DNA from: Candidatus Oxydemutatoraceae bacterium
GTDB taxonomy: Bacteria; Pseudomonadota; Gammaproteobacteria; Poriferisulfidales; Oxydemutatoraceae
Assembly (NCBI GenBank): GCA_965220085.1
Contig: CBDCOZ010000003.1
Coordinates: forward strand, 960,001-1,024,000
Length of the DNA stretch: 64,000 nucleotides
Direction of reading: 5' to 3'
A program made the translations under genes and the position numbers. Of the stretch, positions 10,501 through 32,816 are shown in pieces. How positions within the stretch are numbered: position 1 is the first letter of the stretch; each line of letters opens with the position of its first letter. Under the pieces are notes generated by a model, which made no database searches, was not told the DNA's origin, and worked only from the letters and a program-made list of their open reading frames with translations.

Positions 10501-11172
10501 GAAGCCTTACTAGCAGAGGATTCTAAATCCGGAGAGATTCTAAAACCGCTCCTGCGGGGCCGTGACATCAAGCGCTATAGGGCTAAACGGGCTGAGAAGT
10601 GGCTGATTACCACGCATAATGGCTATGGAGATGTGCCACCTATTGATATCGGTGACTACCCAGCTGTGAAAAGACATCTGGATCGGTTCCATTCGCGAAT
10701 AGTGGCACGAGAAGATCAGGGTACCACCCCATATAACCTTCGCCATTGCGCGTACTACCCCGAGTTTATGCGCGATAAGATTGTTTGGAGTGATATTTCC
10801 ACTAAACCAGCATTCACGATGATGAAAGCAGGGGTATATCTCTTGAATACAGCGTATATGATTACTACAGACAAGCCATACCTTCTTGCTTTCTTAAATT
10901 CCAAATTAGCAGGATACTATATGTCCCTGACAGCAACTGGCTTAGGTGGGCATGGGGTCAGATACTTTAAACAATTTGTGGAGAAGGTTCCTGTCCCAAA
11001 GATAAGTGATGATAAGCATAAATCCTTCGCAAACATAGCAGACAGGATTCTGAATTCCGAAAATCAACCAGCCCACGTCACCAAATTAGAGCGGGATATT
11101 GACCATTTAGTCTATGCGCTCTATGACTTCACTGATGCAGAGATTCAGATGATTGAGAGCTACCAATCATAG
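7522..11172 (+). CDS. Type IIG / Eco57I-like N6-adenine methyltransferase-restriction protein with C-terminal target recognition domain
   Basis: GSFYTPREVV, LDPAVGSGAF (motif I), GNPPY (motif IV), PFINGGLF, TaqI_C-like TRD; ATGA overlap with the helicase. Confidence 0.9.
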   Translation: MTNLSKQEIQDIIDCLAGGNLAQEAYALFKALGYRSGRTGNSSGAVGDFLTHGGYKLTGTESEATFKEQAKAVHILFQITEDEIKAGVGNMLGEDVDFNSGNNKSFVFVVSELCEDSYSRSQYAAFTREINKRLPMPVVVLFRTASGRVSLAFVHRRPSKVNTDRDVLGHVSLVREVNTQAPHRAHLQTLQDLCLHRRLEWIRDHSRDENFDGLLDAWLVALDTQELNKQFYKELFDWFKRAVAEASFPESAGLKPEEQIIRLITRLLFIWFIKEKGLVADELFVEEQVGGLLKDYDRDSGDSYYRAVLQNLFFAVLNTEIGERRFSKQTNETHRDFSCYRYRKEIVKTDRLLAMFDKTPFINGGLFDCLDDFEGVKEGGKRIDYFTDNPAQRRGYSMPNHLFFGPEGLITLFSRYHFTVEENTPIEREVALDPELLGRTFENLLAAYNPETRDKASERKLTGSFYTPREVVDYMVDQALLESLAALVTTDEASWWRDRLGYLLDYADACDDAWELFDAEERKRIVAAVAKVKILDPAVGSGAFPMGVLHKLTLILRRLDPDNKKWRKVQRDLATERASKAFKRTGKEQRKEALQEINELFESYSGSDFGRKLYLIQNSIFGVDIQPIACQIAKLRFFISLAIEQRPNKNKQSNYGIRPLPNLETRFIAADSLINILIPSQLTMVSDEKENIKQEIKDNRECYFHAATRSDKKAMIEKDKDLRIKLADLLWQEWGQGDAGEIDGANLWRNKNKEHKKEKEYTDKIAQWDPYDQNSYAGWFNSEYMFDITEGFDIVIGNPPYIQLQKIDSKMKKLYMAEGYKVCVGNGDIYTLFYERGLQLLKDGAHLCFITSNKWMCAGYGKKLRELFSQKCPKNLIDFSGFRVFDSATVDTNIILIAKANMPADGKLQATSMRDDFSPENSIHKYVEDNKIDIKAENLKMAEAPWIICTPAEFALKEKIERIGVPLKEWDISINYGIKTGCNDAFIIDNETREALLAEDSKSGEILKPLLRGRDIKRYRAKRAEKWLITTHNGYGDVPPIDIGDYPAVKRHLDRFHSRIVAREDQGTTPYNLRHCAYYPEFMRDKIVWSDISTKPAFTMMKAGVYLLNTAYMITTDKPYLLAFLNSKLAGYYMSLTATGLGGHGVRYFKQFVEKVPVPKISDDKHKSFANIADRILNSENQPAHVTKLERDIDHLVYALYDFTDAEIQMIESYQS
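10437..10613 (+). repeat. Left arm of a ~175 bp inverted repeat inside the methylase at the start of its TRD
   Basis: TTCCATTAACTACGGAATAAA...AACGATGCGTTTATCATTGATAACGA...ACTAGGGAAGCCTTACTAGCAGAGGAT matches the reverse complement of 11773-11949. Confidence 0.92.
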
Positions 11173-11174
11173 AG

Positions 11175-11957
11175 CTAACGCCGCTCTTCAATTATCGCTA
11201 TCTCAGCTTTTGTTAGACTAAATAGCGTATATGCCAGATTATCTACTTGCTCTTCTAACTTATTCGTGTTCTCGCGCCTCGCTTTCGCTACGCTGATTTT
11301 TTGCAACAGCTCTACAAAAGGTTGCTGCTCGTTTTGCGGTATTCTGGGAATTGTGATGTTCTCTGCAAAAAGTTTCTGCATCAAATACCCCTTGCTATCC
11401 CGTGAATAGACATACAATGGTATCAAAAATCGAACAATCTTCGAGTTTAACATGGTGCACAGATAAGGCAGGTGTTGCCCTGTGATAATGAAGGCAGTCT
11501 TATCTGTTACAAGTTCGTTGCCAAAATCCATAAAGAATCTGGGGAATTCATCAGGCATACCCTTAGCCTCCCTCATCGTTTCAGGATACACAATCTTATC
11601 GCGCATAAACTCGGCGTGGTATGCAATGCTATCTTGAGTCTCATACCATTTGTAGCCAGTTGCCTTTCGGCTACCAGGCGCACCAGTCTGCTGCAGTCGA
11701 TGCTTGCCAAATGAAAGCAGGTGACGCTTTACAGCCTGATAATCATCAATGTCCAATTCTAGTGCAGGCAATGTGGCAATCAACCACAGTTCGGCCCATT
11801 CCGCCCTGTAGCGTTTTATGTCGCGGCCTCGCAGTATCGGCTTCAGAATCTCCTCGGATTTAGGATCCTCTGCTAGTAAGGCTTCCCTAGTCTCGTTATC
11901 AATGATAAACGCATCGTTGCAGCCCGTTTTTATTCCGTAGTTAATGGAATTGTTCAA
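11175..11957 (-). CDS. Silent alternative target recognition domain (C-terminal cassette) for the type IIG enzyme
   Basis: Begins SINYGIKTGCNDAFIIDNETREALLAED, identical to the expressed TRD start, then diverges; no methylase motifs; tail-to-tail with the main gene. Confidence 0.85.
   Translation of the reverse strand: MNNSINYGIKTGCNDAFIIDNETREALLAEDPKSEEILKPILRGRDIKRYRAEWAELWLIATLPALELDIDDYQAVKRHLLSFGKHRLQQTGAPGSRKATGYKWYETQDSIAYHAEFMRDKIVYPETMREAKGMPDEFPRFFMDFGNELVTDKTAFIITGQHLPYLCTMLNSKIVRFLIPLYVYSRDSKGYLMQKLFAENITIPRIPQNEQQPFVELLQKISVAKARRENTNKLEEQVDNLAYTLFSLTKAEIAIIEERR
11773..11949 (-). repeat. Right arm of the inverted repeat
   Basis: Reverse complement of 10437-10613 with mostly third-codon-position differences. 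Confidence 0.92.
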
Positions 11958-12016
11958 TCCTTAACCTCTTTGTTTCTGTTATAAGAGGATTTTCATTTAA
12001 CTGGGAGACCATATCC

Positions 12017-12982
12017 ATGAAATCAATAATTCAACACTCAATCACAGATATTCGCCGAGATATTGTTACTGGTGCTTTGGCTCAAAACACTATCCGCACA
12101 TATAAAAAGGCATGGGACGATTTTTCTGCCTATTGTAAAAGTCGGCGAATTAAGCCACTTGCAGCGACACCAGACACAGTGGCAGAGTTTCTGATAGAGA
12201 GTGCTACTAAACCATCACTTGCTACTGGCCGGCCATTGTCGGTCGGGTCTCTATCAATCCTTAATTGTGCGATTGCAAAACACTTCTGGTTGCATGAGAG
12301 ACAATCACCCACCAACCACCCAAAGGTAGTGACCGCTATGCGAGGACTGGCGCGTATCAACGGTAAGCCGCCCAGACAGGTCAAGGCATTGCGCGAGAAG
12401 CACATAGTCGAAATGATAAAGCAGTGCGATACCGGCACGTTAATAGGGACGCGCGATGCGGCGCTACTGGCGGTGGGTTTCTCTGCTGCGTTGCGTCGTA
12501 GTGAACTTTGTGCATTGCAAGTCGACGACATTGAGGTGATAGATGACGAGGGCGGATTACGTATGATGCTGACCATCCGCAAATCTAAAACCGACCAAGC
12601 TGGACTAGGCCAAGCTATACCGGTGCTAGATGGCAAGTTCATAAGGCCTGTCACCCATTTGCTGCAATGGTTGCACGAATCTGGCATCACCGATGGTTAC
12701 ATATTTCGTTCTTTGCGGCGCGGAGGGCATATGAGGGGTGATTGTTTGCACCACAGTGATATCCCGCGCCTAGTAAAACGCTATGCTGCTGCCATTGGTC
12801 TTGACCCTGCACATTACGCAGGCCATAGCCTACGCGCTGGATTTGTCACTAGTGCCGCTGCTCACGGCGCACGCATGGATAAGATTATGGAGGTCACGCG
12901 GCATACTAACACCCAGACCTTGATGAAGTATATCCGCGATGCCAATGTATTCAGTGAACATGCAGGCACTAAATTTCTGTGA
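12017..12982 (+). CDS. Tyrosine recombinase (Cre/phage integrase family), candidate invertase
   Basis: RDAALL, LRRSEL (R), KSKTDQ (K), GHSLRAG (HxxR), RH and KYIR (Tyr) catalytic residues. Confidence 0.92.
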   Translation: MKSIIQHSITDIRRDIVTGALAQNTIRTYKKAWDDFSAYCKSRRIKPLAATPDTVAEFLIESATKPSLATGRPLSVGSLSILNCAIAKHFWLHERQSPTNHPKVVTAMRGLARINGKPPRQVKALREKHIVEMIKQCDTGTLIGTRDAALLAVGFSAALRRSELCALQVDDIEVIDDEGGLRMMLTIRKSKTDQAGLGQAIPVLDGKFIRPVTHLLQWLHESGITDGYIFRSLRRGGHMRGDCLHHSDIPRLVKRYAAAIGLDPAHYAGHSLRAGFVTSAAAHGARMDKIMEVTRHTNTQTLMKYIRDANVFSEHAGTKFL

Positions 12983-13118
12983 ACAATTTGAATAAGGCCA
13001 GCTGTTAAATCTTGGGTAACCACAAAACATAACCAAAGTTGAGGAGGATGAAAGATGAGTGTCGGTTCGTAGTGGTATAGCTGAATACCTCCTACTTAAA
13101 TCCTAATATCAAATTAGT

Positions 13119-13342
13119 TCAATTGTGCAGAATCAGGATTTCGCCTTTGCCGTTTGCGGCACAGTCGCCGACATAGCGGTTTGCCAGCTTTGGCAAGGGC
13201 AAGGGCTCAAAGCCGATGTCAAGCTTTTGCAAGTAGTTTGACAGTAAGGTCAGAAACTCGGTTTCAAAGTATTTATTCTGGTTGATAAAGGTCTGGGGCA
13301 GGCCGCCCTGCGGTAATTGACGCAGGATGATGCTCCCTCTTT
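13119..13342 (-). pseudogene. Displaced duplicate of the fhcC 3' end (direct repeat of 17987-18210)
   Basis: ~224 bp near-identical copy including the stop codon; the few differences I found are synonymous. Confidence 0.92.
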
Positions 13343-13461
13343 CCAGAGCGGAATTGACAAGGATGAAGTGTAAAAGGTATGCGGCGGATGTTTTTGAAGG
13401 TGGTGAGGAGGCTTTTAATATGCAAAAATCCAAATATGACTTTTGAATATGGATACAGACA

Positions 13462-14664
13462 ATGCTGAAAAGTGAACTTCTGGAATTAATCGACCAAGGG
13501 GAAGGGCCCAAACTGGAATTTGATCGCGATGATGTCCGCCCTGAAAATCTGGCTAAGGAAATAGTGGCTTTCACCAACATGAACGGCGGCCAAATACTTA
13601 TGGGTGTTGAAAATGATGGAGACATCAGCGGCATACGGAGGAATAACCTTCGGGAATGGGTAATGGATACGGTTATTGGTCGCCATGTTCATCCATATAT
13701 TCATCCGGACTATCAAGAAATTTCGCTTGAAGATAAGAAAGTAGCCGTGATTGATATCCCCATGGGGACTGTCAAGCCATACACTCTCAAACACAATGAT
13801 CGCCAAGATGCGTATGTTCGTTATGGGAATATATGTAAGCCGGTAAATCGTGCACAGCAGGCAAGGTTGTATGCATCCGGCGGGTCTTATTCGATTGAAA
13901 GACTTCCCGTTCCGGGTTCAAAGATTAGTGAACTGAGCAAGCCTCGCTATCTCCAATATTTCTCCGATGTTTTGGAAGAAACGATAGACATTGATGAAGA
14001 GTTTCTTGAAAATCGTTATTTCCTCGTAGATTCAAGTGGTGGCCTATCGTGCAGTTATTTCGCATATGCGCTGTTTGCCAAGAGACCTGGTCTGCGGTTG
14101 CCACAGGCGCCGGTTCGCGTAACTGTATATCCCGGCAATGATAAGGATTACGATACTTCATTGGATGAGAGTCCGGATGTGCCCTATGTGGGGTTATGCA
14201 ATGATGAAGGTGCTGTTGTCGAACCCGCCATTCATGAGAGAGTCATGGCGCTGATACAGTCGCATATCAGTAAAGAACAGTTGGTGGATGCCACCCGAAC
14301 ACGGCTGTGGGACTATCCGCCGGAGGCTATCAGGGAGGCCATAGTCAATGCGCTTGTCCATCGCGATTGGACCAAGACGGGCTGTGTGCGCTTGGAGGTG
14401 TATGGCGACCGCTTGGAAATCCATAGCCCCGGTTCTCTGCCCAATGGCATGACTGTCGATGGGGTAAAACATGGGGCGCGATTTGCCCGCAATCAGCAGT
14501 TGGTTCGCGTATTCAATGATTACGGATATATGGAAGGCCGGGGAATGGGTATACGCCGCAAGATTATCCTGCTGAGCTTGAAACATAGTGGCCGTGAGCC
14601 AGACTTTGAGGCAACAGAAGACCACTTCAAAGTGATACTGTATAAGAAAGATGCTCGCACCTGA
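13462..14664 (+). CDS. Second Schlafen/AlbA_2 + HATPase_c_4 domain protein
   Basis: GEGPKLEF, IVAFTNMNGG, MGVENDG; YPPEAIREAIVNALVHRDW, SPGSLP, RNQQL, GMGI. Confidence 0.85.
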   Translation: MLKSELLELIDQGEGPKLEFDRDDVRPENLAKEIVAFTNMNGGQILMGVENDGDISGIRRNNLREWVMDTVIGRHVHPYIHPDYQEISLEDKKVAVIDIPMGTVKPYTLKHNDRQDAYVRYGNICKPVNRAQQARLYASGGSYSIERLPVPGSKISELSKPRYLQYFSDVLEETIDIDEEFLENRYFLVDSSGGLSCSYFAYALFAKRPGLRLPQAPVRVTVYPGNDKDYDTSLDESPDVPYVGLCNDEGAVVEPAIHERVMALIQSHISKEQLVDATRTRLWDYPPEAIREAIVNALVHRDWTKTGCVRLEVYGDRLEIHSPGSLPNGMTVDGVKHGARFARNQQLVRVFNDYGYMEGRGMGIRRKIILLSLKHSGREPDFEATEDHFKVILYKKDART

Positions 14665-15001
14665 AACCGAACAACCGATTATCAACTCGCCATACGAGGA
14701 ACCGAAGGCGCACTGGAAGATTCATGCCCATGAACCGGCAGAGAAGGTGGAGGGGCGGCGCATGGCGGCTTATATGTATCTGCCATCCGGCAAGTCCCAT
14801 GATGTGGAGGATGAGCGCAAGACCGGCTACGAACTGGAATTGCAACTGGTGACACTGTTGCGTGAGCGGGTTACCGAGTGGCGGGAGATGGCACGGCGCG
14901 GCGAGGGCGGTGTCAGCAGGGTGACTATGGAACTGCTGAACTACTGGCGCCGCGAAGGGCGGAAGCATCGGTTGTTCTTTGCGCAGTTGGAAGTAGCGTA
15001 G
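14651..15001 (+). pseudogene. Truncated N-terminus of a type III restriction-like (Res/DEAD) subunit
   Basis: PIINSPYEEPKAHW, LRERVTEWR, TMELLNYW and LFFAQLE resemble the N-terminus of large type III Res proteins; stops after 116 aa before any helicase motif. Confidence 0.7.
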
Positions 15002-15080
15002 GTGGTTGTATTTCTAGCCTTTCAGGTTTTGTTTCAGTTATGGTATAACAGCCAGTACCCTTACAACTGGAGACCATACC

Positions 15081-15665
15081 ATGAAAATTTTCATATTCTC
15101 ACCCCAATCCATCTATATGGAGATTTGGCAATGCCTTAAGATTCGCCGCTCTGTTTATGTGCAAAACAGAAATCTATATTTCTTGACGATGCTTGTTGTC
15201 GCACTTACAGCATCTACAGACGCATTCGCCGCAAATCTAGACCAGCACATAAACATGGGCCCTACTGAAAGGGAAATCGGCATGATGCTTGATGAACAAG
15301 TTTTCAAGAATGGAATAGAAGTGTTCAATAAGAAGAACTGGTTTCCCCCTGCTAGATGCAAAGCTTATTTAGGTGGTGCAAAAGACCATCCAACACAAGT
15401 ACGTCTATTAACTGATGCCAAAAAGGGCTACATGCCCATAGTAATAAGGTCATATCTGAGATTCCAAGGGGATGGCTGTAGAGGGGTTTTCAGACCCTTT
15501 GTAAAATCTCAGTATGTAGGATTTGCTGTTAAAATTCTCCCTGCCCCTGCCAATAATCCCAAGTGCGGGAAGATGATTGTATTGGAGAAATCAAATATTA
15601 AGAAATTGCCAGGGATAATAGAAACCAATATAGACAAAAAAATGAAATACCAAATATGCAGCTAG
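15081..15665 (+). CDS. Hypothetical, probably secreted protein (true start likely further downstream)
   Basis: AT-rich ORF; LVVALTASTDAFA signal-peptide-like segment; four Cys in the mature part. Confidence 0.55.
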   Translation: MKIFIFSPQSIYMEIWQCLKIRRSVYVQNRNLYFLTMLVVALTASTDAFAANLDQHINMGPTEREIGMMLDEQVFKNGIEVFNKKNWFPPARCKAYLGGAKDHPTQVRLLTDAKKGYMPIVIRSYLRFQGDGCRGVFRPFVKSQYVGFAVKILPAPANNPKCGKMIVLEKSNIKKLPGIIETNIDKKMKYQICS

Positions 15666-15916
15666 TCTACTGGTAACAATTAATATAGCTCTGTATACTG
15701 GCTATTGCAGAGTGCGACTATGATGCTTATATTCAAGTCAAACAGGGATAATAAGCATTACTTAGTCTGGGTGGCGCATTAAGGTGCCGCCCGACGCTGG
15801 GTCAATGCGGTGAACGTCGACGGCAAGCATGGTCATTGGCAATATTGCATGGTGTCAGAAAGCGAGAAGGCCGTTGATGCGGTGGATGATGCCGTCAAAG
15901 CCGCGAGCCGCACATA

Positions 15917-16127
15917 GCCTATGCGCACTATCGGCTCCGAACACGGCGCTGTTTATCGATGCCAAGCTCCATAACACAGGGCCGGGGCACGAAGTATCCG
16001 TCAGAAAAGAGGCACTGACCGAGAGGGTCCGGCCTTCCAAGGCCTTTGTTGGGGCCAAGCATGAGTTTATAAAAGAGGTATCGCGCATCGGCAATAGCCT
16101 GAATGATTTGGGTGCGTATAATGTAAC
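15917..16127 (+). pseudogene. Degenerate internal fragment of ccp/mauG (homologous to ~2113-2325)
   Basis: ALFIDAKLHNTGPGHEVSVRKEALTERV...EFIKEVSRIG..NDLGAYNVT versus ALFTDNKLHNTGLGYEISMKKETPTERV...EFIKEVTRVG..NDLGAYEVT. Confidence 0.85.
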
Positions 16128-16207
16128 AAGAAAATGGGTGGCAGGTGGCCACTGGGCTGCACATAGGATAAAGATACCTCATTCCACACATATATAAACT
16201 GACTACG

Positions 16208-17383
16208 ATGAAAATTGAACGTATAGAGATTAATAATTTCCGCGCGCTACATAGTGTGGTTCTGAAAGATATTCCCAGCTTAGCTGTTTTTATTGGCAAA
16301 AACGGCAGCGGCAAGTCCACTTTGTTTCAAGTATTTGGTTTCTTAAAAGATGCACTGCAGAATAATGTACAAACAGCTTTGCAAAGAATGGGCGGATACC
16401 ATGAGGTGGCGACGCGAGGTCATTCGGATGAGCCAATCAGCATAGAAATAAAGTTCAGGATGAAGATTGCCGAGAAAGAACGACTGGTCACATACCGCGT
16501 TGAGATTGCCCGCAGAGACGACCGGCCTTTCGTCCGCCGCGAGATACTGCGTTACAAGAGAGGGTCTTTCGGTTCTCCGTTTCATTTTCTGGATTTTAGC
16601 AATGGCAACGGCTACGCGATTAACAATGAGGAGGATTTCAATAAACCGGACATAGAACTGGAGAAAGAGCATCAGAAGTTGCCCGACAATGTTCTGGCCA
16701 TCAAGGGCTTGGGGCAGTTTGAAAGGTTTAAGGCGGCCAGCGCTTTTCGCCATCTGATAGAGAACTGGCATGTCTCCGATTTCCATATAGCCGCCGCACG
16801 GCAGCGCGCAGAAGCCGGTGTGGCCGAGCATCTGTCTCCGACAGGAGACAACCTGCCGCTGGTCGCCCAATATTTGCAGAAGGGGAATCCGGAGGTGTTC
16901 CGGAAGATATTGGATAGGTTCCAAGAGCGGATTCCGGGCATGGGGAAGGTCACCGCGGATGTTACTCAGGATGGGCATGTGCTGCTGCGATTTAGCGATG
17001 CTTCTTTCAAAGATCCTTTCATTGCGCGATTTGTATCTGACGGAACCATTAAGATGTTTGCCTATCTGGTTTTGTTGCATGATCCCGAGCCTCACCCCTT
17101 TTTATGTATTGAGGAACCGGAAAACCAGCTTTACCCGGATCTTTTTGAAGCATTGATGGAGGAGTTGCGCGAATACGGCAGACTGGGAGGACAGGTATTT
17201 GTGTCCACGCATTCGCCGGACATCATGGATTATGCGGAGATTGAGGAAGCATTTCAGTTGGAAAAGAACTCCGGCAAAACTCAGATAAAAGCAATAAAGA
17301 ACAACGAGCAGGTCGCGGCGCTTGTCGAAGGGGGAGACAAACTGGGCTGGCTTTGGAATCAAAATTTGCTGACAGCCGATTAA
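16208..17383 (+). CDS. ABC-type AAA ATPase (AAA_15/AAA_21 family), defence associated
   Basis: GKNGSGKST Walker A, SDGT signature, IEEPEN Walker B, STHS switch. Confidence 0.88.
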   Translation: MKIERIEINNFRALHSVVLKDIPSLAVFIGKNGSGKSTLFQVFGFLKDALQNNVQTALQRMGGYHEVATRGHSDEPISIEIKFRMKIAEKERLVTYRVEIARRDDRPFVRREILRYKRGSFGSPFHFLDFSNGNGYAINNEEDFNKPDIELEKEHQKLPDNVLAIKGLGQFERFKAASAFRHLIENWHVSDFHIAAARQRAEAGVAEHLSPTGDNLPLVAQYLQKGNPEVFRKILDRFQERIPGMGKVTADVTQDGHVLLRFSDASFKDPFIARFVSDGTIKMFAYLVLLHDPEPHPFLCIEEPENQLYPDLFEALMEELREYGRLGGQVFVSTHSPDIMDYAEIEEAFQLEKNSGKTQIKAIKNNEQVAALVEGGDKLGWLWNQNLLTAD

Positions 17384-17385
17384 CC

Positions 17386-17985
17386 ATGCCTGAAACCGCA
17401 CATCTGTGTTTGTATGTCATGCTGGAGGAACGTAGCGCCGAGCGCTTGATGAAAGCACTGTTGCCTCATATCCTTCCCGAAGAACTGGCATCCGGCGCCA
17501 TAAGCGCCAAATGCATCCCCCACAGAGGCAGAGGTGATTTGCAAAAGTCTATTCCCAACAAACTGCGTAACTGGCGCACTCCAAACTCCCTTTTTGTGAT
17601 TTTGCACGATCAAGACAATGAGGATTGTCACGGATTAAAAAGAGATTTGCGTTCCCTGTGTGCGGGCAGCCAATGTGAGCATAATCCGCTGATAAGAATC
17701 GTATGCACTGAGTTAGAGTCTTGGTATTTTGGAGATTTGGACGCTGTGGAAGCGGCATACCCCGGATTCAAGGCGGATAGATATCGCAACAAGAGCCAAT
17801 ACAGGGTGCCGGATGCCATTCAAAAGCCGAGTGAGAGGCTTAAGAGCTTAATCAAAGAGTTTGATAAAAGTACGGCTGCCAAGAAAATACCCCGACACAT
17901 GGATATTAACCGTAACCGTTCCGCAAGTTTTATATGTATGGTGGAAGGTATCCGCAATCTGGTGCGCGGAGCAATAGTAGCGTAG
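17386..17985 (+). CDS. DUF4276-like (TOPRIM-related) partner of the ATPase
   Basis: MLEERSAE, LHDQD, ELESWYFGD and NRSASF motifs; directly coupled to the ATPase. Confidence 0.75.
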   Translation: MPETAHLCLYVMLEERSAERLMKALLPHILPEELASGAISAKCIPHRGRGDLQKSIPNKLRNWRTPNSLFVILHDQDNEDCHGLKRDLRSLCAGSQCEHNPLIRIVCTELESWYFGDLDAVEAAYPGFKADRYRNKSQYRVPDAIQKPSERLKSLIKEFDKSTAAKKIPRHMDINRNRSASFICMVEGIRNLVRGAIVA

Positions 17986-23121: not shown

Positions 23122-24454
23122 ATGATCCAACAAAACAACATGAAATTACGAATTACTAATACTACCCCCCCCCCCCCCCCCCCCTCCTTCGCATAGGCGG
23201 ACAGCGCTAACTCGGCTTAGTCTCTGGTCGCTGGTTCTGCCGGCGTTGTTTGCTTGCGCTTGTATCTTCGCCGCGAGCGCCGCACACGCACAAGCCGCTT
23301 GCCCCGCCGGGCAAACGCGAGTCACGAATCAGGCCGGCGCCACCGGTTGCTTTCTTGATGCCAATGTCAAAATTCTGACGGACTGTGAAAACAGCGGATG
23401 GATTGGTCGCGAAGATGTGGCTCTGCCCCCCGATACAGGTTTAGCCTGCGCCATTCGCAGCAGGTTGTTGGGGGGATTAGGCTCTAGCGGCCCGAGCGCA
23501 GGGTTGTGCCTGATTGTCACCGACAATACTTTTCTTCCCACTGTTTTTCCCTCTTGCACCGCAATGTACGGTAACCCGCCGGTTTTTCCGAAAGCGGAGG
23601 ACCATCCTAATGTTGTCAGCCCGATACACCCGAGCGTGGATGGTAGCGGAGATGATTATTTCCACGCAAACTGCGATCGTGACGGGGGTGTCCCCGGCGG
23701 TTATCCGCCGGACCACAACATCAATGGCGAAACCGAATGCGCCTGCGATTTGGACTCGCACATCGGCGAATGGCCGGACTGCGTTGCCGCGCCGGATTTG
23801 ACCCGCGCCCAACGGCAGGGGGTTGGCACATGCGCGAGTCAAGGGTGGAATGTTTCCACCGCCACTGACGCCATCAAATGCGAAATTCCGCTGACTTCGG
23901 GCGGGATGGATTTTCCCGGCGGTTGCTTTTTTGACGAGGGTACGCCGCTGTGCGCGGATGTGTTCGGAGAGACATACGCCTTTCCGGATGGAACTTCGCC
24001 GACGCTCGTGCGGAGTCTTTACGACGGCTTTAACGCCATAAGCTCAGATTCCGCAGAGGTCAGAACCGCGGCGAGAGTTTATCGGGATGCGGTTTTGGCG
24101 CGATACGAAGGCGACCCGAACTATCTTGTCGCGCCGCTCGCCAACATAGAGGGCAACTCCGACAACAATAATCTGGCAATTGTCCGCAGCGTGTTGTTGC
24201 CAGTGTTCTCCGCGAACGACAAGATTCCTTTTGACTTTGTGGGAAGCGGGACAACCGACGCAGAGCGCCTTGCGGCGTTGCCCGGCTTAATCACGGCGGC
24301 GTTTGAGATGATTCCGGTTCGGGACCCGTATGTTTTCAACTGCGGCGCGGGCATGATTCCGGCAACGGTCAACACTGTCGGCGCGACGGAATGCGCTCGC
24401 CAACTGGACCTGCGCTTGCGCTTGCGCGTTTTCCTTGAAGGCCCGTTGCGGTAG
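23122..24454 (+). pseudogene. Cys-rich secreted protein paralogue 1, out of frame at a C20 tract (phase-OFF or assembly slip)
   Basis: RBS GGAG plus ATG at 23122 reads into C20 (23165-23184) and hits TAG at 23194; the rest of the gene is intact in the +1 frame and ends LRLRLRVFLEGPLR. Confidence 0.8.
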
Positions 24455-24818
24455 CGCGAGTGCTCCCCTTGCAGGACTTGTGCGCACACTCCCCTTGCGG
24501 GAGTCGACAAGCTAAGGGGGCTGGCGGGTAGCCTGACTACTCCGACACGTTGCTATCGCACCATCCCCGCAGGCGCACTGGCGGGAGTGTTGGGTGCGCA
24601 AGCGATATGTGAACACTGCTTAAAGCATGTTTAAGCGGAGGGAAGGGGAGTATTATGGGCGCACAAGGGGAGACAGATACGCTTGCAAATGACTGAAACA
24701 TGTCGGAAACATGCCGGATTGCCGGCTTCGGCAAAGGCCGACAGGCAATAGCAACGCATCGGCAACGCCGCCGCAAGCGGTCGCCGGAGGCGGTCGTTGC
24801 GATTTGAAAAAAAAGCGC

Positions 24819-24972
24819 TTGCAAAGGACTCACTTTGTGGTATAGTGCACGAAATCCATAAGGGGAGAGCAACAGTTGGACTTGTAAATAACTGAACTTA
24901 TGATATAGTGCACGGAATCCATAAGAGGAGAGCAACGATTGAACTTATAAATGACGGAATTTATGATATGGT
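24819..24972 (+). promoter_or_regulatory. Three stacked promoter-like units with a 63 bp period
   Basis: TTGCAA/TATAGT (24819/24841), TTGTAA/TATAGT (24882/24904), TTATAA/TATGGT (24945/24967), each with TG upstream of the -10. Confidence 0.55.
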
Positions 24973-25164
24973 GCGCCATTAAACAATCCACAAATAGTTT
25001 ATGGAATACAAACAATTTGAAGAAACCACAGACAATTAGATTAAACACACACAAACAACCGAGTGTTGTTTGTGCCTCTTATTACTGTGCTCTCATATCG
25101 TTTGTAGCTTCTTATGTTGCTTGCGCACATATGCCGTACGGTCACATCTTTCAGGAGTAAAACA

Positions 25165-26490
25165 ATGATACAACAAAACAACATGAAATTACGAATTACT
25201 AATACTACCCCCCCCCCCCCCCCCCCCTCGCATAGGCGGACAGCGCTAACTCGGCTTAGCCTCCGGGCGCTGGTTCTGCCGGCGCTGTTTGCTTGCGCTT
25301 GTATCTTCGCCGCGAGCGCCGCACACGCACAAGCCGCTTGCCCCGCCGGGCAAATGCGAGTCACGAATCAGGCCGGCGCCACCGGTTGCTTTCTTGATGC
25401 CAATATCAAAATTCTGACGGACTGTGAAAACAGCGGATGGATTGGTCGCGAAACTAGGGGGGTAACCCCCGCCGTAGGCTTAGCCTGTAGCATTCGCAGT
25501 AGATTGCTTAGGAGGCTCGTCCTTGGCGGCCAGAGCGCAGAGCTGTGCGTAATTGCCACCACCAATACTAGTGTGATCGATTTTATTCCCTTTTGCACTA
25601 CAATGTACGGTAACCCGCCGGTTTTTCCACAAGCGGAGGACCATCCTAATGTTAGCAGCCCGATACATCCGAGCGTGAATAACAGCGGAAAGGACTATTT
25701 CGTGGCAAACTGCGATCATGGCGGGGATGTCCCCGGCGGTTATCCGCCGACCCACAACCTCAACGGCGCAACCGAATGCTCCTGCGATTTGGACTCGCAC
25801 ATCGGCGAATACCCGAACTGCGTTGCCGCGCCGGACTTAACCCGCGCCCAACGGGAGGGGGTTGGCACATGCGCGAGTCAAGGGTGGAATGTTTCCACCG
25901 CCACCGATGCCATCAAATGCGAAATCCCGCTGACTTCGGGCGGGGCGGACTTTGACGGCTGCTTTTTTGACGAGGGCACGCTGCTGTGCGCGGATGTGTT
26001 CGGAGAGACATACGCCTTTCCGGATGGAACTTCGCCGACGCTCGTGCGGAGTCTTTACGACAGCTTTAACGCCATAAGATCAGATAACGCCGAGGTCAGA
26101 ACCGCGGCGAGAGTTTATCGGGATGCGGTTTTGGCGCGGTACGAAAGCGACCCGAACTATCTTGTCGCGCCGCTCGCCAACATAGAGGGCAACTCCGACA
26201 ACAATAATCTGGCAATTGTCCGCAGCGTGTTGTTGCCAGTGTTCTCCGCGAACGACATGATTCCTTTTGACTTTGTGGGAAGCGGGACAACCGACGCAGA
26301 GCGCCTTGCGGCGTTGCCCGGCTTAATCACGGCGGCGTTTGACATGATTCCGGTTCGGGACCCATATGTTTTCAACTGCGGAGCGGGCATGATTCCGGCA
26401 ACGGTCAACACTGTCGGCGCGACGGAATGCGTTCGCCAACTGGACCTGCGCTTGCGGTTGCGCCTCTTTCTGGAAGGCCCGTTGCGGTAG
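25165..26490 (+). CDS. Cys-rich secreted protein paralogue 2, in frame through a C20 tract
   Basis: C20 at 25208-25227 encodes a poly-Pro run; signal peptide ending AAHA; ends LRLRLRLFLEGPLR. Confidence 0.85.
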   Translation: MIQQNNMKLRITNTTPPPPPPSHRRTALTRLSLRALVLPALFACACIFAASAAHAQAACPAGQMRVTNQAGATGCFLDANIKILTDCENSGWIGRETRGVTPAVGLACSIRSRLLRRLVLGGQSAELCVIATTNTSVIDFIPFCTTMYGNPPVFPQAEDHPNVSSPIHPSVNNSGKDYFVANCDHGGDVPGGYPPTHNLNGATECSCDLDSHIGEYPNCVAAPDLTRAQREGVGTCASQGWNVSTATDAIKCEIPLTSGGADFDGCFFDEGTLLCADVFGETYAFPDGTSPTLVRSLYDSFNAIRSDNAEVRTAARVYRDAVLARYESDPNYLVAPLANIEGNSDNNNLAIVRSVLLPVFSANDMIPFDFVGSGTTDAERLAALPGLITAAFDMIPVRDPYVFNCGAGMIPATVNTVGATECVRQLDLRLRLRLFLEGPLR

Positions 26491-26638
26491 CGCGGGTAAC
26501 CGGCGGCAGAGTAAGAAGAGTGTTATGAGGCGCACAAGAAGATGAGACAGGATCCAAAGATACTTGCGAATGACTTTGTGGCGGAAGCGCTCCTTGCGCA
26601 ACTGCCTTCACGAAACATAAACCAGAAGGAGAATTACT

Positions 26639-27931
26639 ATGAACTGCCAAATTTCTGATACTGCCCCTCGGCATCGGCGGGCAACGCTGACCCGGCTTAG
26701 TTTCCGGGCGCTGGTTCTGCCGGCGCTGTTTGCTTGCGCTTGTATCTTCGCCGCGAGCGCCGCACACGCACAAGCCGCTTGCCCCGCCGGGCAAACGCGA
26801 GTCACGAATCAGGCCGGCGCCACCGGTTGCTTTCTTGATGCCAATGTCAAAATTCTGACGGACTGTGAAAACAGCGGCTGGGTTGGTCGCGAAGATGCGG
26901 CTCTGCCCCCCGACACAGGTTTAGCCTGCGCCATTCGTAGCAGACTGTTGAGGGGATTAGGCTCTGGCGGCTCTAGCTCAGGGTTGTGTCTGATTGTCAC
27001 CGACAATGCTGTTTTCCCCACTTTTATTCCCTTTTGCACCGCAATGTACGGTACCCCGCCGGTTTTTCCGAAAGCGGAGGACCATCCTAATGTTGTCAGC
27101 CCGATACATCCGAGAGTGGATGGCAGCGGAAATGATTATTTCCACGCAAATTGCGATCGTGACGGGGGCGTCCCCGGCGGCTATCCGCCGGACCACAACC
27201 TCAACGGCGCAACCGAATGCTCCTGCGATTTGGACTCGCACATCGGCGAATACCCGAACTGCGTTGCCGCGCCGGACTTAACCCGCGCCCAACGGGAGGG
27301 GGTTGGCACATGCGCGAGTCAAGGGTGGAATGTTTCCACCGCCACCGATGCCATCAAATGCGAAATCCCGCTGACTTCGGGCGGGATGGACTTTGACGGC
27401 TGCTTTTTTGACGAGGGTACGCCGCTGTGCGCGGATGTGTTCGGAGAGACATACGCCTTTCCGGATGGAACTTCGCCGACGCTCGTGCGGAGTCTTTACG
27501 ACAGCTTTAACGCCATAAGATCAGATAACGCCGAGGTCAGAACCGCGGCGAGAGTTTATCGGGATGCGGTTTTGGCGCGGTACGAAAGCGACCCGAACTA
27601 TCTTGTCGCGCCGCTCGCCAACATAGAGGGCAACTCCGACAACAATAATCTGGCAATTGTCCGCGGCGTGTTGTTGCCAGTATTTTCCGCGAACGACATG
27701 ATTCCTTTTGACTTTGTGGGAAGCGGGACAACCGACGCAGAGCGCCTTGCGGCGTTGCCCGGCTTAATCACGGCGGCGTTTGACATGATTCCGGTTCGGG
27801 AGCCGTATGTTTTCAACTGCGGCGCGGGCATGATTCCGGCAACGGTCAACACTGTCGGCGCGACGGAATGCGCTCGCCAACTGGACCTGCGCTTGCGGTT
27901 GCGCGTTTTCCTGGAAGGGCCGTTGCGGTAG
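26639..27931 (+). CDS. Cys-rich secreted protein paralogue 3 (no poly-C tract)
   Basis: AGAAGGAG RBS; near-identical to paralogues 1 and 2 outside the variable segment; ends LRLRLRVFLEGPLR. Confidence 0.88.
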   Translation: MNCQISDTAPRHRRATLTRLSFRALVLPALFACACIFAASAAHAQAACPAGQTRVTNQAGATGCFLDANVKILTDCENSGWVGREDAALPPDTGLACAIRSRLLRGLGSGGSSSGLCLIVTDNAVFPTFIPFCTAMYGTPPVFPKAEDHPNVVSPIHPRVDGSGNDYFHANCDRDGGVPGGYPPDHNLNGATECSCDLDSHIGEYPNCVAAPDLTRAQREGVGTCASQGWNVSTATDAIKCEIPLTSGGMDFDGCFFDEGTPLCADVFGETYAFPDGTSPTLVRSLYDSFNAIRSDNAEVRTAARVYRDAVLARYESDPNYLVAPLANIEGNSDNNNLAIVRGVLLPVFSANDMIPFDFVGSGTTDAERLAALPGLITAAFDMIPVREPYVFNCGAGMIPATVNTVGATECARQLDLRLRLRVFLEGPLR

Positions 27932-28077
27932 CGCGAGTAACCGACGGAGCAGGAGAGTGTTATGAGATGCACAAGAGGATGAGACAGGATCCAAAGATAC
28001 TTGCGGATGACTTTGCGGCGGAGAAGGGGAGTGTTATGAGGCGTAAGAGGATGAGACAGGATGTGAAGTATGTACAG

Positions 28078-28272
28078 TTTAATGAGGCACGGTGATAAGA
28101 GCACAGTAATAAGAGCACAGTGATAAGAGCACAAACAACTCAGTTGTTTGTGTGTCCTTGATTAGTTGTTTGTGTGTCCTTGATTAGTTGTTTGTGTGTC
28201 CTTGATTAGTTGTTTGTGGATTGTTTAATGAGGCACGGTGATAAGAGCACAGTGATAAGAGCACAAACAACT
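28078..28272. repeat. Composite short tandem repeat block (14 bp GATAAGAGCACAGT units; 22 bp AGTTGTTTGTGTGTCCTTGATT x3.5; CACAAACAACT-C-AGTTGTTTGTG palindrome)
   Basis: Read directly; 22 bp units start at 28142, 28164, 28186 and (partial) 28208. Confidence 0.9.
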
Positions 28273-28290
28273 TAAGAAACCACAAACAGT

Positions 28291-28603
28291 TTGCGGAGTT
28301 TGAAGCGGGTTTGTTGCCGACCCACATTCGGGTATTCAATAATCATCGGATAAAATATCTGCCATGGTTTAATACCCAACGACCACACTGCGGATTGAGG
28401 CTCCAAACACCTATGAGACAAATTACAAAATATCTGCCCAAAGTTTCCAATATGTCATGGCATCATACATTTAATAATCATCGGATAAAATATCCGCCAT
28501 GGTTTAATACCCAACGACCACACTATGGGTTGAGGCTTCAAACACCTATGAGACAAATTACAAAATATCCGCCTCAGGCATCCGATATGTTATGGCATCA
28601 TAC
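28291..28603 (+). mobile_element. IS481-like transposase 3'-end remnant, tandemly duplicated (135 bp unit)
   Basis: FNNHRIKYLPWFNTQRPHCGLRLQTPM...SNMSWHHT resembles the integrase-core C-terminus (YN..RPH..L...TP); first unit ends ...CATACA like a TGT/ACA IS end. Confidence 0.6.
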
Positions 28604-28704
28604 GCGGGGTGGCGTTGCGGGCGCGGGTGAGGCATAATGGCATCGGCGCGGGATGGGTCTGCGCTGATTTCTTCTGGCGAAACATTGACAATACGGGGCA
28701 TGCT

Positions 28705-30933
28705 ATGAAAAAGTTTTTTGATGATTTGTTTGGGGTCGCGCGGGTTGCGGGGCGGGTTGCCGCTCTCGCTCTGGCGCTGGCATCATCGCCGGCCATGGGG
28801 CAGAAGGTTACGCTGGTGCCATCGGATGCGAGCCCCATGGAGAATGCCGGCGCCATCACATTGACGGCGACCGCGGACTCTGCGCCATCCGCCGACATCA
28901 CCATCACCGTGACATCATCGGCATCCTACCTGAGAGTGCCCGCGGCCAACACCCTGACCATAGCATCGGGTGCCACCGCATCCACCGGCAGCGGGCTGTC
29001 GCTGACCCTGGTGGATGACATAGTGGCCGGACAGGACAGGACGGCCGTGCTGTCGGCCACCATAGCCAGCACCGACACCGGCGCGGCCGCCCCCGATGAT
29101 GTCACCATCACCATAGTGGAGGACGACGAGTTGCGGATGAATCTGCAGACCAGCAGCCTGTGGCGCGAGGGCAGCGAAGAGCAGGCCTGCGTCACATTCT
29201 CCACGCCTTTTGCCGGCTCCATAACGATGGGCTTCACTGCGACGGCGACCGCGCTGGGCGAGATATTTGACCCCACCGCCAGCACCCGCGCCGAAATCAC
29301 CGAGAACAACTATGAGGACGGCGACTTGGCGCTTCCAAACCCGCCCTCCGTCACCGCCGTCGCCGGTAACACCCAGGTGTGCTTCGAAATCGGCGTCAGG
29401 GACAATGACGAGTCGGACGGCCCGCGATTCTTCACCCTGTCGTTTGGCGATATCAGAACCGAGACCATTAAGTTCCCCATAGTCGGCGACAACACCGCCA
29501 TCCAGCAGATTGCGGATGATGATAATACGCCCGCCACCGGCGCGCCGGCCGTCACAGCGGCGGACAATGCCGACCTGACAATGGCGGGGCCCAATGAGGA
29601 CAGCCTGCTGACCGCCGCTCGCGGCGCCATAGACGATGACGATGGCCTCATCACATTCGCCCCGACCTGGGTCTGGCAACAGGGCGATGCCGCCGATGGC
29701 GTCTTCACCGACATAATATCGGCCACCGCCGCCACCTTCGCGCCCCTGCAGGCCCATGTCGGCAAGTTTCTGCGCGCCTGTGCCACCTTTGACGATTACG
29801 CCGGCAAAAGCGAGACCCGTTGCTGGACCTCGGTCGCCGCCGTCGTCAATGTCGATGATGCTCCGGTTGCGATGGGCAACACCATCCATGTGCCGGTGGG
29901 CGGCAGCTATACGTTCTCGGCGGATGACTTCCTCTTTGCCGATGAGGACGACGATGCGCTGGTCAGCGTTGTCATAGAGGGCGCACCCACCGCCGGCACC
30001 CTGAGCGTGGCGGGCATCTCGTTGACCGCCAACAGTGCGGCCGTGACTGTGTCCGCCGCCGGCATCAACAACAACAGCATCGTATACCAACCGGCGAGCG
30101 GCCAGTCCGCTACCGCTGGCTACGCCACATTCACATTTAATGTGACTGCCAACGCCAAGACCAGCGACAACGATGCCGCCATGACCATAGACCTGGTGCC
30201 ATCTGCCAACACGACGGCCACCGGCGCGCCGACGGTGACGGCTACAACGGGCACCGCCGCCTATGACGAGAATGTGGAACTGACCGCATCCGCCACCGGC
30301 GTAACCGATGCCAACGGCATCCCCGCCCACACCCGCATCTGGCAATGGCAATCCGCCGCCGCCGCCAGCAGCACCCCGACCGCCAGCGCCTACGCCGACA
30401 TCCCCGGGGCCGCCGCCGCCAACTTCACGCCCCGGCGGGTCCATGTCGGCCAATACATCCGCGTCTGCCTCCGCTTCACCGATGGCATAGGCACCACAGA
30501 GGGCGGCGACGCCGCTTCCCCCACGCTGTGCTCCGTCGGCGCCATCATCGCCAGAGCCAATTCGGTGAGTGTGCCGACTACCGCCGACGAATCAAAGCCC
30601 TATGTTTTCAAGCTATCCGACTTCATGTTCCCGGAGGACACCGGCAATCCGCAAAGCATAACCATACGCACCGCCATAGCATCCTACAAGGGCACATTGC
30701 ACAACGGCAGCGACCCGGTGACCGCCGGCGCCACAGTGACCGCCGCCGAGTTGCGCAACGGCGACCTTGCTTTCTATCCCGCGGGCAGATTCGCCGCCGC
30801 CTTCAACTTCGCCAGTTTCGCCTACACCGTGAACTATGGCGGCACAGACACCGAAACCCGCACCATGAACATACATCTGGTAGAGCGCCTGCGCTTGCGC
30901 TTGCGCGTATTCCTCGAAGGCCCCCTGCGGTAG
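28705..30933 (+). CDS. Secreted adhesin-like protein with Calx-beta and Ig/cadherin-like repeats
   Basis: Signal peptide; TLVDD, TIVEDD and IADDDN Calx-beta-type motifs; two ATGAP.V...W(Q/V)WQ...DI.GA.AA.F.P...HVG..R modules; DDAPVA..YTFSADDF; ends LRLRLRVFLEGPLR. Confidence 0.8.
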   Translation: MKKFFDDLFGVARVAGRVAALALALASSPAMGQKVTLVPSDASPMENAGAITLTATADSAPSADITITVTSSASYLRVPAANTLTIASGATASTGSGLSLTLVDDIVAGQDRTAVLSATIASTDTGAAAPDDVTITIVEDDELRMNLQTSSLWREGSEEQACVTFSTPFAGSITMGFTATATALGEIFDPTASTRAEITENNYEDGDLALPNPPSVTAVAGNTQVCFEIGVRDNDESDGPRFFTLSFGDIRTETIKFPIVGDNTAIQQIADDDNTPATGAPAVTAADNADLTMAGPNEDSLLTAARGAIDDDDGLITFAPTWVWQQGDAADGVFTDIISATAATFAPLQAHVGKFLRACATFDDYAGKSETRCWTSVAAVVNVDDAPVAMGNTIHVPVGGSYTFSADDFLFADEDDDALVSVVIEGAPTAGTLSVAGISLTANSAAVTVSAAGINNNSIVYQPASGQSATAGYATFTFNVTANAKTSDNDAAMTIDLVPSANTTATGAPTVTATTGTAAYDENVELTASATGVTDANGIPAHTRIWQWQSAAAASSTPTASAYADIPGAAAANFTPRRVHVGQYIRVCLRFTDGIGTTEGGDAASPTLCSVGAIIARANSVSVPTTADESKPYVFKLSDFMFPEDTGNPQSITIRTAIASYKGTLHNGSDPVTAGATVTAAELRNGDLAFYPAGRFAAAFNFASFAYTVNYGGTDTETRTMNIHLVERLRLRLRVFLEGPLR

Positions 30934-32166: not shown

Positions 32167-32750
32167 CGCCGGAAACATTGCGGATTCCCGGCATCGACAC
32201 GGGTTGTCATGAATCATGCCGGAAGCATTGCGGACTCCCGGCATCAACACGGGTTGTCATGAATCATGCCGGAAGCATTGCGGACTCCCGGCATCAACAC
32301 GGGTTGTCATGCATCGTGCCGGAAGCATTGCGGGCCCCCGGCATCAACGAAGGCCGACAGGCAATATCAGCACATCGGCAACGCCGCCGCAACCGCCCGC
32401 CGGAGGCGGTCGCAGGGACTGAATAACGCCGGAAACATTGCGGACTGCCGGCATCGGCACGGGTTGCCGAATCATCCGGAAACATGCCGGACTCCTCGCA
32501 TCGACACGGTTGCCGAATCATGCCGGAAACATTGCGGAGTCTTGGCATCGGCACGGGTTGCCGAATCATGCCGGAAACATTGCGGACTGCCGGCATCGAC
32601 ACGGGTTGTCATGAATCATGCCGGAAATATTGCGGATTCCCGGCATCGACACGGGTTGTCATGAATCATGCCGGAAACATTGCGGAGTCTTGGCATCGGC
32701 ACGGGTTGCCGAATAACGCCAGAAGCATTGCGGACTGCCGGCATCAAGCG
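32161..32750 (+). repeat. Tandem array of ~11 palindromic 46-50 bp units (REP/BIME-like), interrupted once by a ~70 bp module
   Basis: Consensus GAATCATGCCGGAAACATTGCGGACTCCCGGCATCGACACGGGTTG(TCAT/CC) with an ATGCCGG...CCGGCAT stem. Confidence 0.92.
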
Positions 32751-32816
32751 GGCGTCATGCAAATTGCTTGGGCTATAATGTCTCTTCCGACGCTTCACAT
32801 GTAATTTGGTAGTCAA

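Follow-up and report, generated by a model that had tools for sequence, protein, structure and literature searches.

A 14-residue C-terminal tail on many otherwise unrelated carriers in a proteobacterial genome: a candidate localisation signal in place of an autotransporter barrel

We analysed a 64,000-nt window of the genome of a Candidatus Oxydemutatoraceae bacterium (assembly GCA_965220085.1, contig CBDCOZ010000003.1, positions 960,001–1,024,000, forward strand), in which four tandem genes on the same strand (open reading frames (ORFs) at window positions 23246–24454, 25114–26490, 26639–27931 and 28609–30933) all end in LRLRLR[VL]FLEGPLR followed directly by a stop codon, a C-terminus referred to below as the tail. 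The genome that contains the window (2.49 Mb in three contigs; hereafter G000) carries tetrahydromethanopterin-linked C1 genes, and its conserved genes are proteobacterial. Genes 1–3 are close paralogues of one another and terminate in ..QLDLRLRLR[VL]FLEGPLR; gene 4 terminates in ..VERLRLRLRVFLEGPLR and, once trimmed of its tail, has no blastp match to genes 1–3 (E<1e-3), in agreement with a sequence-only reading of the window that had described the tail as the one feature gene 4 shares with the three paralogues. In DNA alignments, the identity of gene 4 with genes 1–3 begins at the tail, and past the stop a weak DNA similarity continues for ~70 nt among all four genes.

Gene 1 is headed by a leader (23122–23196, + strand) with ATG codons at 23122 and 23140 (peptide ..MKLRITNTT) and a 20-nt poly-C run (23165–23184, +) that lies between start codon and signal-peptide core and would read as poly-Pro; as assembled, this leader is out of frame with the body and meets a TAG at 23194, leaving the gene in phase OFF. 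The body (402 amino acids called from a TTG, 23246–24454, +) belongs to a Cys-rich family, is assigned to last-domain class C02 and ends in tail 1 (24410–24454, +; LRLRLRVFLEGPLR plus stop). In gene 2 (458 amino acids, 25114–26490, +), the ATG at 25183, a 20-nt poly-C run at the 5′ coding end (25208–25227, +) and the signal peptide share one frame, so that the gene is in phase ON as assembled, and tail 2 occupies 26446–26490 (+; LRLRLRLFLEGPLR plus stop). Gene 3 (430 amino acids, 26639–27931, +), the paralogue of genes 1 and 2 that is without poly-C, has the signal peptide ..LVLPALFACACIFAASAAHAQA and ends in tail 3 (27887–27931, +; LRLRLRVFLEGPLR plus stop). Gene 4 (774 amino acids from a GTG, 28609–30933, +), likewise without poly-C, is assigned to a cadherin-like passenger family and last-domain class C00, likely starts at ATG 28705 (MKKFFDD.., signal peptide ..ALALASSPAMG) and ends in tail 4 (30889–30933, +; LRLRLRVFLEGPLR plus stop). 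Signal peptides, which had been ascribed to all four genes, are present, with the reservation that gene 1 has no in-frame start ahead of its own, the poly-C run shifting ATG 23140 out of frame. The description of gene 4 as a Calx-beta adhesin is not borne out by Pfam, which gives no Calx-beta match, only a borderline one to Cadherin_3 (25.3 bits against a cut-off of 25.5).

The four genes form one array among many tail-gene loci. A six-frame scan of G000 with F[LIV][EQ]G[PA]L[RQ] returned 220 matches, 215 of them with a stop as the next codon exactly one residue past the L, a number far above chance expectation, so that the tail seen on the four tandem genes is real and not confined to them. 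The 215 tail frames comprise 186 of at least 100 amino acids, which we call carriers, and 29 short fragments; the 186 total 158,622 amino acids, or 19% of G000 bases, and the largest reach 15,193, 14,212, 13,236, 9,776 and 6,024 amino acids. A fuzzy search (up to three substitutions in RLRLFLEGPLR) gave 231 matches, 222 C-terminal and nine internal, adding only seven C-terminal copies to the strict set. In a greedy gene set, tail genes occupy 83 loci, 47 of them singletons and the remainder arrays of 2–7 that hold 123 of the 170 tail genes.

The conserved stretch is 14 amino acids long. Each residue of R-L-R-x-F-L-E-G-P-L is kept in at least 212 of the 215 copies, an invariance that for F, E, G, P and L follows in part from the search pattern itself, although looser matching added just the seven variants mentioned, and K never substitutes R at the core positions in G000. 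At the DNA level, the first, second and third codon positions of the 11-residue core have entropies of 0.35, 0.02 and 0.90 bits over the 215 copies, compared with 1.82 bits in both flanks, and 177 distinct 33-nt cores encode only 8 peptides (149 copies of RLRLFLEGPLR, 35 of the I variant and 26 of the V variant), followed by TAG (135), TAA (52) or TGA (28). Free synonymous change around a fixed peptide means that the tail is under strong purifying selection as a peptide and not as DNA; what had been noted from the codons of four window tails is thereby quantified genome-wide. Beyond the stop, the next six bases (+1 to +6) are semi-conserved throughout the genome, with consensus CGCGAG and an entropy of 1.0–1.4 bits as opposed to ~1.9 bits further on (e.g., window 24455–24460).

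These measurements bear directly on a rival explanation in which the conserved 3′ end, together with the 5′ leaders, would serve as a DNA-level handle for recombination or gene conversion among surface-protein cassettes, the peptide being incidental. Sequence contexts are shuffled around the tail as such a handle would predict: the DNA downstream of tails falls into 77 classes, the largest of which trails seven last-domain classes, one ~100-nt downstream element has 21 of its 22 genomic matches behind tails, several loci show tandem copies of 3′ ends, and the majority of tail genes sit in the arrays described above. Recombination would nevertheless need DNA identity, and the 177 versions leave third positions nearly free while the peptide stays fixed, frame and stop position are always kept, and relatives retain the peptide with different codons, which together make a DNA-level role highly improbable. 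As an observation in its own right, the duplicated 3′ ends (tail plus ~100–150 nt) produce strings of short orphan tail ORFs at G000:C3:513743-514211, 908957-909461, 1303686-1303926 and 102373-102529.

The proteins ahead of the tail are diverse. Their last 110 residues before it fall into 16 classes (64, 42, 29, 14, 11 and 10 members in the largest), and 9,675 of 17,205 carrier pairs have no blastp match (E<1e-3, tail removed), which supports the view of the tail as an autonomous module on otherwise unrelated carriers; single linkage nonetheless joins 182 of the 186 carriers through shuffled modules. Pfam scans of 20 representative carrier pieces identified Cadherin, He_PIG, PPC repeats, fn3 and GLUG, as well as two proteins with Peptidase_S8 and Calx-beta, a cargo of the kind usual at the surface or among secreted proteins, and no RTX repeats were seen in these 20 fragments. 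By our own crude heuristic, as distinct from a trained predictor, a signal-peptide-like segment occurs between residues 1 and 120 in 162 of 188 open frames, and a stricter version that requires a start codon is satisfied by 119 of 170 carriers against 505 of 1,814 other ORFs. The earlier proposals that the tail sits on unrelated proteins, and that its carriers are signal-peptide proteins rather than cytoplasmic ones to an equal degree, are supported by this evidence. AlphaFold, given a 21-sequence alignment, models gene 3 at a mean predicted local distance difference test (pLDDT) score of 63.9, with residues 416–430 unstructured (pLDDT <50), a weak hint from a weak model that the tail may lie outside the last domain instead of forming one of its strands; the variety of preceding domains and linkers argues likewise.

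Composition suggests a further alternative, namely a self-assembly zipper in which amphipathic Arg/Leu strands would pair mutually or with an anionic polymer to form a mixed surface layer or matrix. Carrier bodies are strongly acidic and Lys-poor (D+E 11.8%, K 1.06%), the tail itself is basic, and its alternation of hydrophobic residue and R runs to three units in 137 of the 186 carriers. Generic pairing of this kind would tolerate K for R as well as swaps among L, I, V and F, whereas in the tail E, G, P and L do not vary and no core R is a K; since the fixed distance to the stop is also left unexplained, we consider a zipper very unlikely.

The poly-C runs of genes 1 and 2 belong to a genome-wide pattern, in that 82 of the 90 C/G homopolymers of at least 9 nt in G000 sit at the 5′ end of tail frames on the coding strand. 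As assembled, 26 of these 82 genes are in frame and 56 out, counts that depend on unreliable assembly tract lengths, and the in-frame share of about one third is what random tract lengths would give. When reads were mapped, the raw-read run was almost without depth save for poly-C/G reads, and the contig run broke at the tracts. Taken as they stand in the assembly, the poly-C genes suggest that G000 possesses a very large repertoire of phase-variable genes for surface proteins. Long poly-C tracts also occur in several relatives, tail-free ones included, so the switch and the tail are separable.

Distribution among relatives was followed with two generations of patterns. The initial DNA patterns demanded Arg at the final position and also eight residues ahead of the end, which left them blind to K/Q/N variants; they found no G000-type tail in 40 relatives, only 4 chance matches in a collection of genome contigs and only 6 matches in one of metagenome contigs, and a second strict pattern found none in 400 genomes of the class, scans that exclude the G000-type tail only. 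In the relative G003, a poly-C-linked gene ends in ..IRMRIKVFLEGALN-stop, and this became the basis of an improved pattern that was run on the 40 relatives and on 300 sampled genomes of the class. Raw matches to F-L-E-G-[P/A]-L, which include non-tails (e.g., only 4 of 9 are tails in G012), numbered 219 in G000, 11–41 in all five genomes of genus g3, 7–26 in four of five genomes of genus g4, 2 in one of four genomes of genus g2 (G001), none in the four genomes of genera g5 and g6, and 0–2 each in 22 genomes of three sister families, as in the controls (0–2); no tail variant was found in these 22 sister-family genomes. In the 300 sampled genomes, the pattern followed by a stop recurred in G003 only (seven matches), apart from five single matches, and the other 299, all from outside the family, yielded no tail variant.

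Inspection of 29 contexts in G002, G007 and G012 identified 24 as tails (e.g., IRIRTKVFLEGPLQ-stop or VRVRVRVFLEGPLQ-stop), each with the stop one residue past L, as in 7 of 7 from G003. The variant of the two other genera reads h-R-h-R-x-K/R-V-FLEG[PA]L-x-stop (h, hydrophobic), F-L-E-G-[PA]-L being common across genera and the last residue lineage-dependent (R, Q, N or P), and the cargo includes cadherin-like, Big_9, PKD-like, GLUG and Calx-beta domains. The overall consensus is hydrophobic-R-hydrophobic-R-x-[K/R]-[V/L/I/M]-F-L-E-G-[P/A]-L-x-stop. On our best reading, the tail would mark exported, largely phase-variable surface and secreted proteins in three genera of a single proteobacterial family.

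A possible role for the tail is suggested by homologues that lack it. The closest foreign homologues of the gene 4 passenger, P0045 and P0054 (45% and 44% identity), continue into an autotransporter β-domain ending ..DYRLRARLRW, and P0027 and P0029 are carrier homologues without the tail. A library of 1.84 billion proteins yielded 139 further homologues, including 19 with G000-type tails and 18 with ends like the h-x-h-x-[F/W] β-signal, many reading ..RL[RQ]ARLRW; two more, unclassed, end in ..RW, and one is PEP-CTERM-like. At the genome level, the autotransporter β-domain (PF03797) exceeds its cut-off 32, 9, 8 and 1 times in four genomes of sister family f2 and once in sister family f3, where open frames with a barrel match reach 12,365 amino acids, and not once in the 13 genomes of the tail family that were searched, G000 included. 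A model built from P0045 and P0054 detected one broken relic autotransporter in G000 (G000:C3:834321-836031, just upstream of locus L031). Its leader precedes a 22-nt poly-C tract, a signal peptide and a cadherin-like passenger, and past the ensuing frameshift all that survives is the final ~150 barrel residues, ending ..WRLQARVRW; the barrel part is 64–71% identical to P0045 and P0054. The same lineage-specific model found no intact autotransporter-like barrel in G000. Together, the relic and the barrel-bearing homologues indicate that the lineage once used autotransporters for this protein family, and the best reading is that the tail may be a functional replacement of the ~280-amino-acid barrel carried by homologous passengers in sister lineages.

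Replacement could also have been more literal. The Arg/hydrophobic strand leading to F might descend from, or mimic, the β-signal of the lost barrel and pair with BamA or a shared barrel, so that a passenger lacking its own barrel could still be moved across the outer membrane or onto it. The tail stands exactly where homologues have their barrel, these barrels end in ..[Y/W]RL[R/Q]ARLRW with the same R/hydrophobic alternation and a terminal aromatic residue, similarly giant passengers use barrels in the sister family, and G000 retains a single Omp85 protein (BamA) alongside the relic barrel. Compared with an outer-membrane β-signal, however, the tail has its F seventh from the end rather than last and no barrel domain before it; G000's own outer-membrane proteins end in ..x-F and bear no special likeness to K-V-F-LEGPL. 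A single strand cannot form a pore, and the likeness between the strands is generic, given the ..LLKVRF or ..SLAGRF termini of other sister-family autotransporters. Overall, an autotransporter stripped of its barrel strikes us as unlikely, though less so than the two alternatives above.

The export machinery of G000 narrows the choice of route. The gspC-L cluster of the genome is complete and a second secretin comes with an ATPase, in addition to one TolC; no TpsB was found, and no type I ABC exporter in G000 exceeded its cut-off (best scores 293.8 against 693.1 and 185.7 against 510.2). A type I C-terminal signal was rejected, as carriers have signal-peptide-like starts and the ABC exporters remain below cut-off. 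All 18 family genomes have GspL, against none of 22 sister-family genomes, and GspC is found in 12 of 12 against 0 of 8; that type II secretion is in this way complementary to autotransporters across families is our main reason to favour a type II route.

Neighbourhoods and phyletic profiles were also searched for a partner of the tail. The only recurrent neighbours of tail genes in G000 are insertion sequence (IS) elements and a 10-member coiled-coil family with a C-terminal anchor, with no chaperone- or usher-like partner among them. Profiling for a co-occurring partner, which the sequence-only reading had held out as a way forward, did not deliver one, the three candidates examined tracking the family and not the tail: a 479-amino-acid protein beside the second secretin occurs in tail-free genera; GspC does too, and its alignment has no visible difference between tail-bearing and tail-free genomes; and an Asp-protease/TPR protein beside the gsp operon is likewise present in tail-free genera. 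The last of these, retropepsin-like and found in 12 of 12 family genomes against 0 of 8 sister-family genomes, lies directly upstream of gspC together with a Wzy_C/TPR (O-antigen-ligase-like) protein (L029:3565-7067, G000:C3:448564-452066). Members of the coiled-coil family, whose C-terminal membrane anchor reads MKKPKNLKAEDAAVAAYGSVENL.., stand beside tail genes including the giants (e.g., G000:C3:1300387-1300857, 1342026-1342886 and 1318416-1319042).

Mobile and defence elements complete the picture of the surroundings. Six identical IS1595-like transposase genes adjoin tail genes elsewhere in G000, and within the window, 28311–28637 and 32178–32800 hold short tandem or dispersed repeats whose translations resemble the C-terminal ends of transposases (..WFNTQRPHCGLRLQTPMRQ..), plus REP-like units (..CRKHCGLPASTRVVMNHAGNIADSRHRHGLS..). 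A defence island spans window positions 4184–17985, with a SNF2/DISARM DrmD-like helicase (1,113 amino acids), a BREX PglX-like methyltransferase (1,228 amino acids), a tyrosine recombinase and a MADS3-like ATPase.

Weighing these data, we think it likely that the tail is a functional, helix-less C-terminal localisation signal of surface proteins. The fuller account that we favour, with somewhat less assurance, is that this signal replaces the barrel and works by a type II route followed by docking. Carriers would first be exported by Sec through their N-terminal signal peptides, as their signal-peptide-like starts imply. They would then cross the outer membrane by the type II route, a step that follows from elimination and from the distribution complementary to autotransporters and that we advance only tentatively. 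Finally, the flexible tail, as an amphipathic Arg/Leu strand with an E-G-P-L turn and a stop exactly one residue beyond it, would be recognised by one specific putative partner that keeps or places the cargo on the surface, the specificity being inferred from the invariance of the tail residues; that the tail docks non-covalently rather than being cleaved is a still more tentative part of the proposal. Of the sequence-only interpretation, which the data support in part, the export tag and the donor strand for a scaffold or translocon are likewise hypotheses.

Several observations weigh against this account. Type II secretion is also found in the tail-free genera g2, g5 and g6, so it cannot depend on the tail, nor can the tail be its general signal. 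Passengers of 10,000–15,000 amino acids are difficult to conceive of as type II substrates in a folded state, and in the sister genomes it is an autotransporter barrel match that accompanies frames of up to 12,365 amino acids. No tail-specific receptor, enzyme or transporter was found, the three candidates having been tested by distribution; the signal-peptide calls come from the crude heuristic described, and the gene 3 structure model is poor overall. A free C-terminus may, moreover, not be strictly needed, given that in three proteins (L007:3869-5293, L007:16359-18002 and G000:C3:1171425-1173515), two with PPC repeats and one a trypsin-like protease, the motif lies near the N-terminus and is followed by GGS.. 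instead of a stop. These proteins have a single N-terminal module in common (signal peptide MKKLL.., ~20 residues, tail motif, GGS), so these copies probably represent one evolutionary event, and the module fits a portable anchoring module.

The protease among them is pertinent to the remaining alternative, that of a cleaved sorting signal, in which a dedicated protease or transpeptidase would recognise F-L-E-G-P-L, remove the last few residues and link the cargo covalently to a surface molecule, for example lipopolysaccharide, a lipid or peptidoglycan, in the manner of sortase, exosortase, rhombosortase or type IX PorU. An invariant signature with G and P recalls LPXTG and PEP, as far as the available part of their description goes, the variable last residue is what a leaving group would lead one to expect, and the motif is present in the N-terminal propeptide of one trypsin-like protease paralogue. 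Against cleavage, the tail offers no transmembrane segment to hold the precursor, which signals of that kind all have in the portion of the literature available to us, and a tail-specific enzyme was not found. The trypsin-like protease was rejected as the sorting enzyme: its homologues in other assemblies carry GlyGly-CTERM and no motif, so that the family is not tied to the tail, and it has no match among solved structures. Cleavage appears unlikely and a little less probable than the stripped autotransporter, both being less favoured alternatives to type II export with docking.

The tail itself matches nothing in the resources searched, which upholds the earlier view that it fits no defined sorting family. 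None of the four window proteins matches an NCBIfam family (release 20) at E≤0.1; eight C-terminal 50-mers and one N-terminal module gave a single irrelevant 12.9-bit match, upstream of the tail, at E≤10; Pfam has no match on the tail; and a literature search with the motif letters turned up unrelated matches only and no relevant paper. The finding is thus real, far larger than first noted and absent from the libraries and papers searched. None of the outcomes that the sequence-only reading had listed as counting against it applies, the structural one being judged from the weak gene 3 model. G000 does encode a rhombosortase, beside a 1,369-amino-acid GlyGly-CTERM-like protein, and has a few GlyGly-CTERM-like proteins; on our best reading the tail is an alternative to the GlyGly-CTERM tag that a few G000 proteins still use. 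The 1,369-amino-acid protein lies directly upstream of the rhombosortase gene (G000:C3:470148-475607, L032) and has no Pfam domain at E≤1e-6.

The same passenger domains stand behind a barrel in one lineage and behind the tail in the next, a natural experiment in which two questions become testable: by what means outer-membrane export selects folded or giant proteins, and what allows type II substrates to be recognised or retained. In the sources as far as they were accessible, short C-terminal sorting tags have been described as tripartite and paired with a membrane-embedded enzyme, and a helix-less tag of 14 residues on ~200 diderm proteins falls outside that description. The tail might also provide a very small portable tag for surface display, and so large a set of contingency genes bears on how such bacteria vary their surface. 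Homopolymer contingency loci, in which slipped-strand mispairing switches surface proteins, are known from Neisseria, Haemophilus, Campylobacter and Helicobacter, and 82 poly-C-switched genes in 2.5 Mb with one constant anchor would be among the larger such sets. The G000 tail genes resemble these loci in the placement of poly-C between start codon and signal peptide in 82 genes, with roughly a third in frame; they differ in a locus number that is very large for 2.5 Mb and in being known here from the assembly alone.

Among C-terminal tags, the type IX domain of Bacteroidota (Por_Secre_tail) is folded, ~70–100 amino acids long and served by a dedicated translocon and a C-terminal signal peptidase. 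Like the tail, it is shared by many unrelated surface or secreted proteins, including proteases and adhesin-like repeat proteins; unlike it, the tail is a proteobacterial sequence of 14 residues with no NCBIfam match of the TIGR04183 type. The tripartite signals (LPXTG/sortase, PEP-CTERM/exosortase, GlyGly-CTERM/rhombosortase, MYXO-CTERM) have many copies, invariant residues and unrelated signal-peptide carriers in common with the tail, which for its part lacks a helix or terminal Arg cluster, is 14 residues in all and has no cognate membrane protease among the proteins found. Judged by the eight attributes of prokaryotic C-terminal sorting signals given, with the tripartite scheme of motif, membrane helix and basic cluster, in the available part of a preprint (Haft 2023), the tail agrees in six: C-terminal position (215 of 220 strict and 222 of 231 fuzzy matches), many copies (215), an invariant signature, signal-peptide carriers, carrier pairs that share nothing else, and homologues without the signal or with another. 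It departs from the other two, having no hydrophobic segment of transmembrane length (Arg occupies every second tail position and nothing follows) and no terminal basic cluster (Arg is interleaved upstream of F, and lineages differ in whether they end with R, Q, N or P).

For the proposed route, the nearest comparison is VesB of Vibrio cholerae, a type II substrate retained at the surface, together with the substrate subset that depends on the PDZ domain of GspC (PMC12369372, PMC6219818 and PMC13393428, as far as the accessible text goes). Export by Sec and type II secretion followed by surface association would be shared, and the GspC of G000 has a weak PDZ-like C-terminal part; in contrast to the tail, VesB owes its anchoring to GlyGly-CTERM processing and has its PDZ-dependent signal in an Ig fold and not in a linear tail (PMC12369372, in the part available). 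A PDZ ligand would fit the fixed distance to the stop but neither the variable polar last residue nor the three internal copies, and the GspC PDZ match is weak (E 0.025).

Compared with the autotransporter β-domain of type Va secretion, the tail has 14 amino acids instead of ~280, no barrel, and an aromatic residue followed by six more conserved residues. Long poly-C tracts and many autotransporter genes coexist in genomes of the sister family. What the two systems share is an alternation of R and hydrophobic residues with an aromatic one, as in the autotransporter β-signal, and the same position behind the same passenger family.

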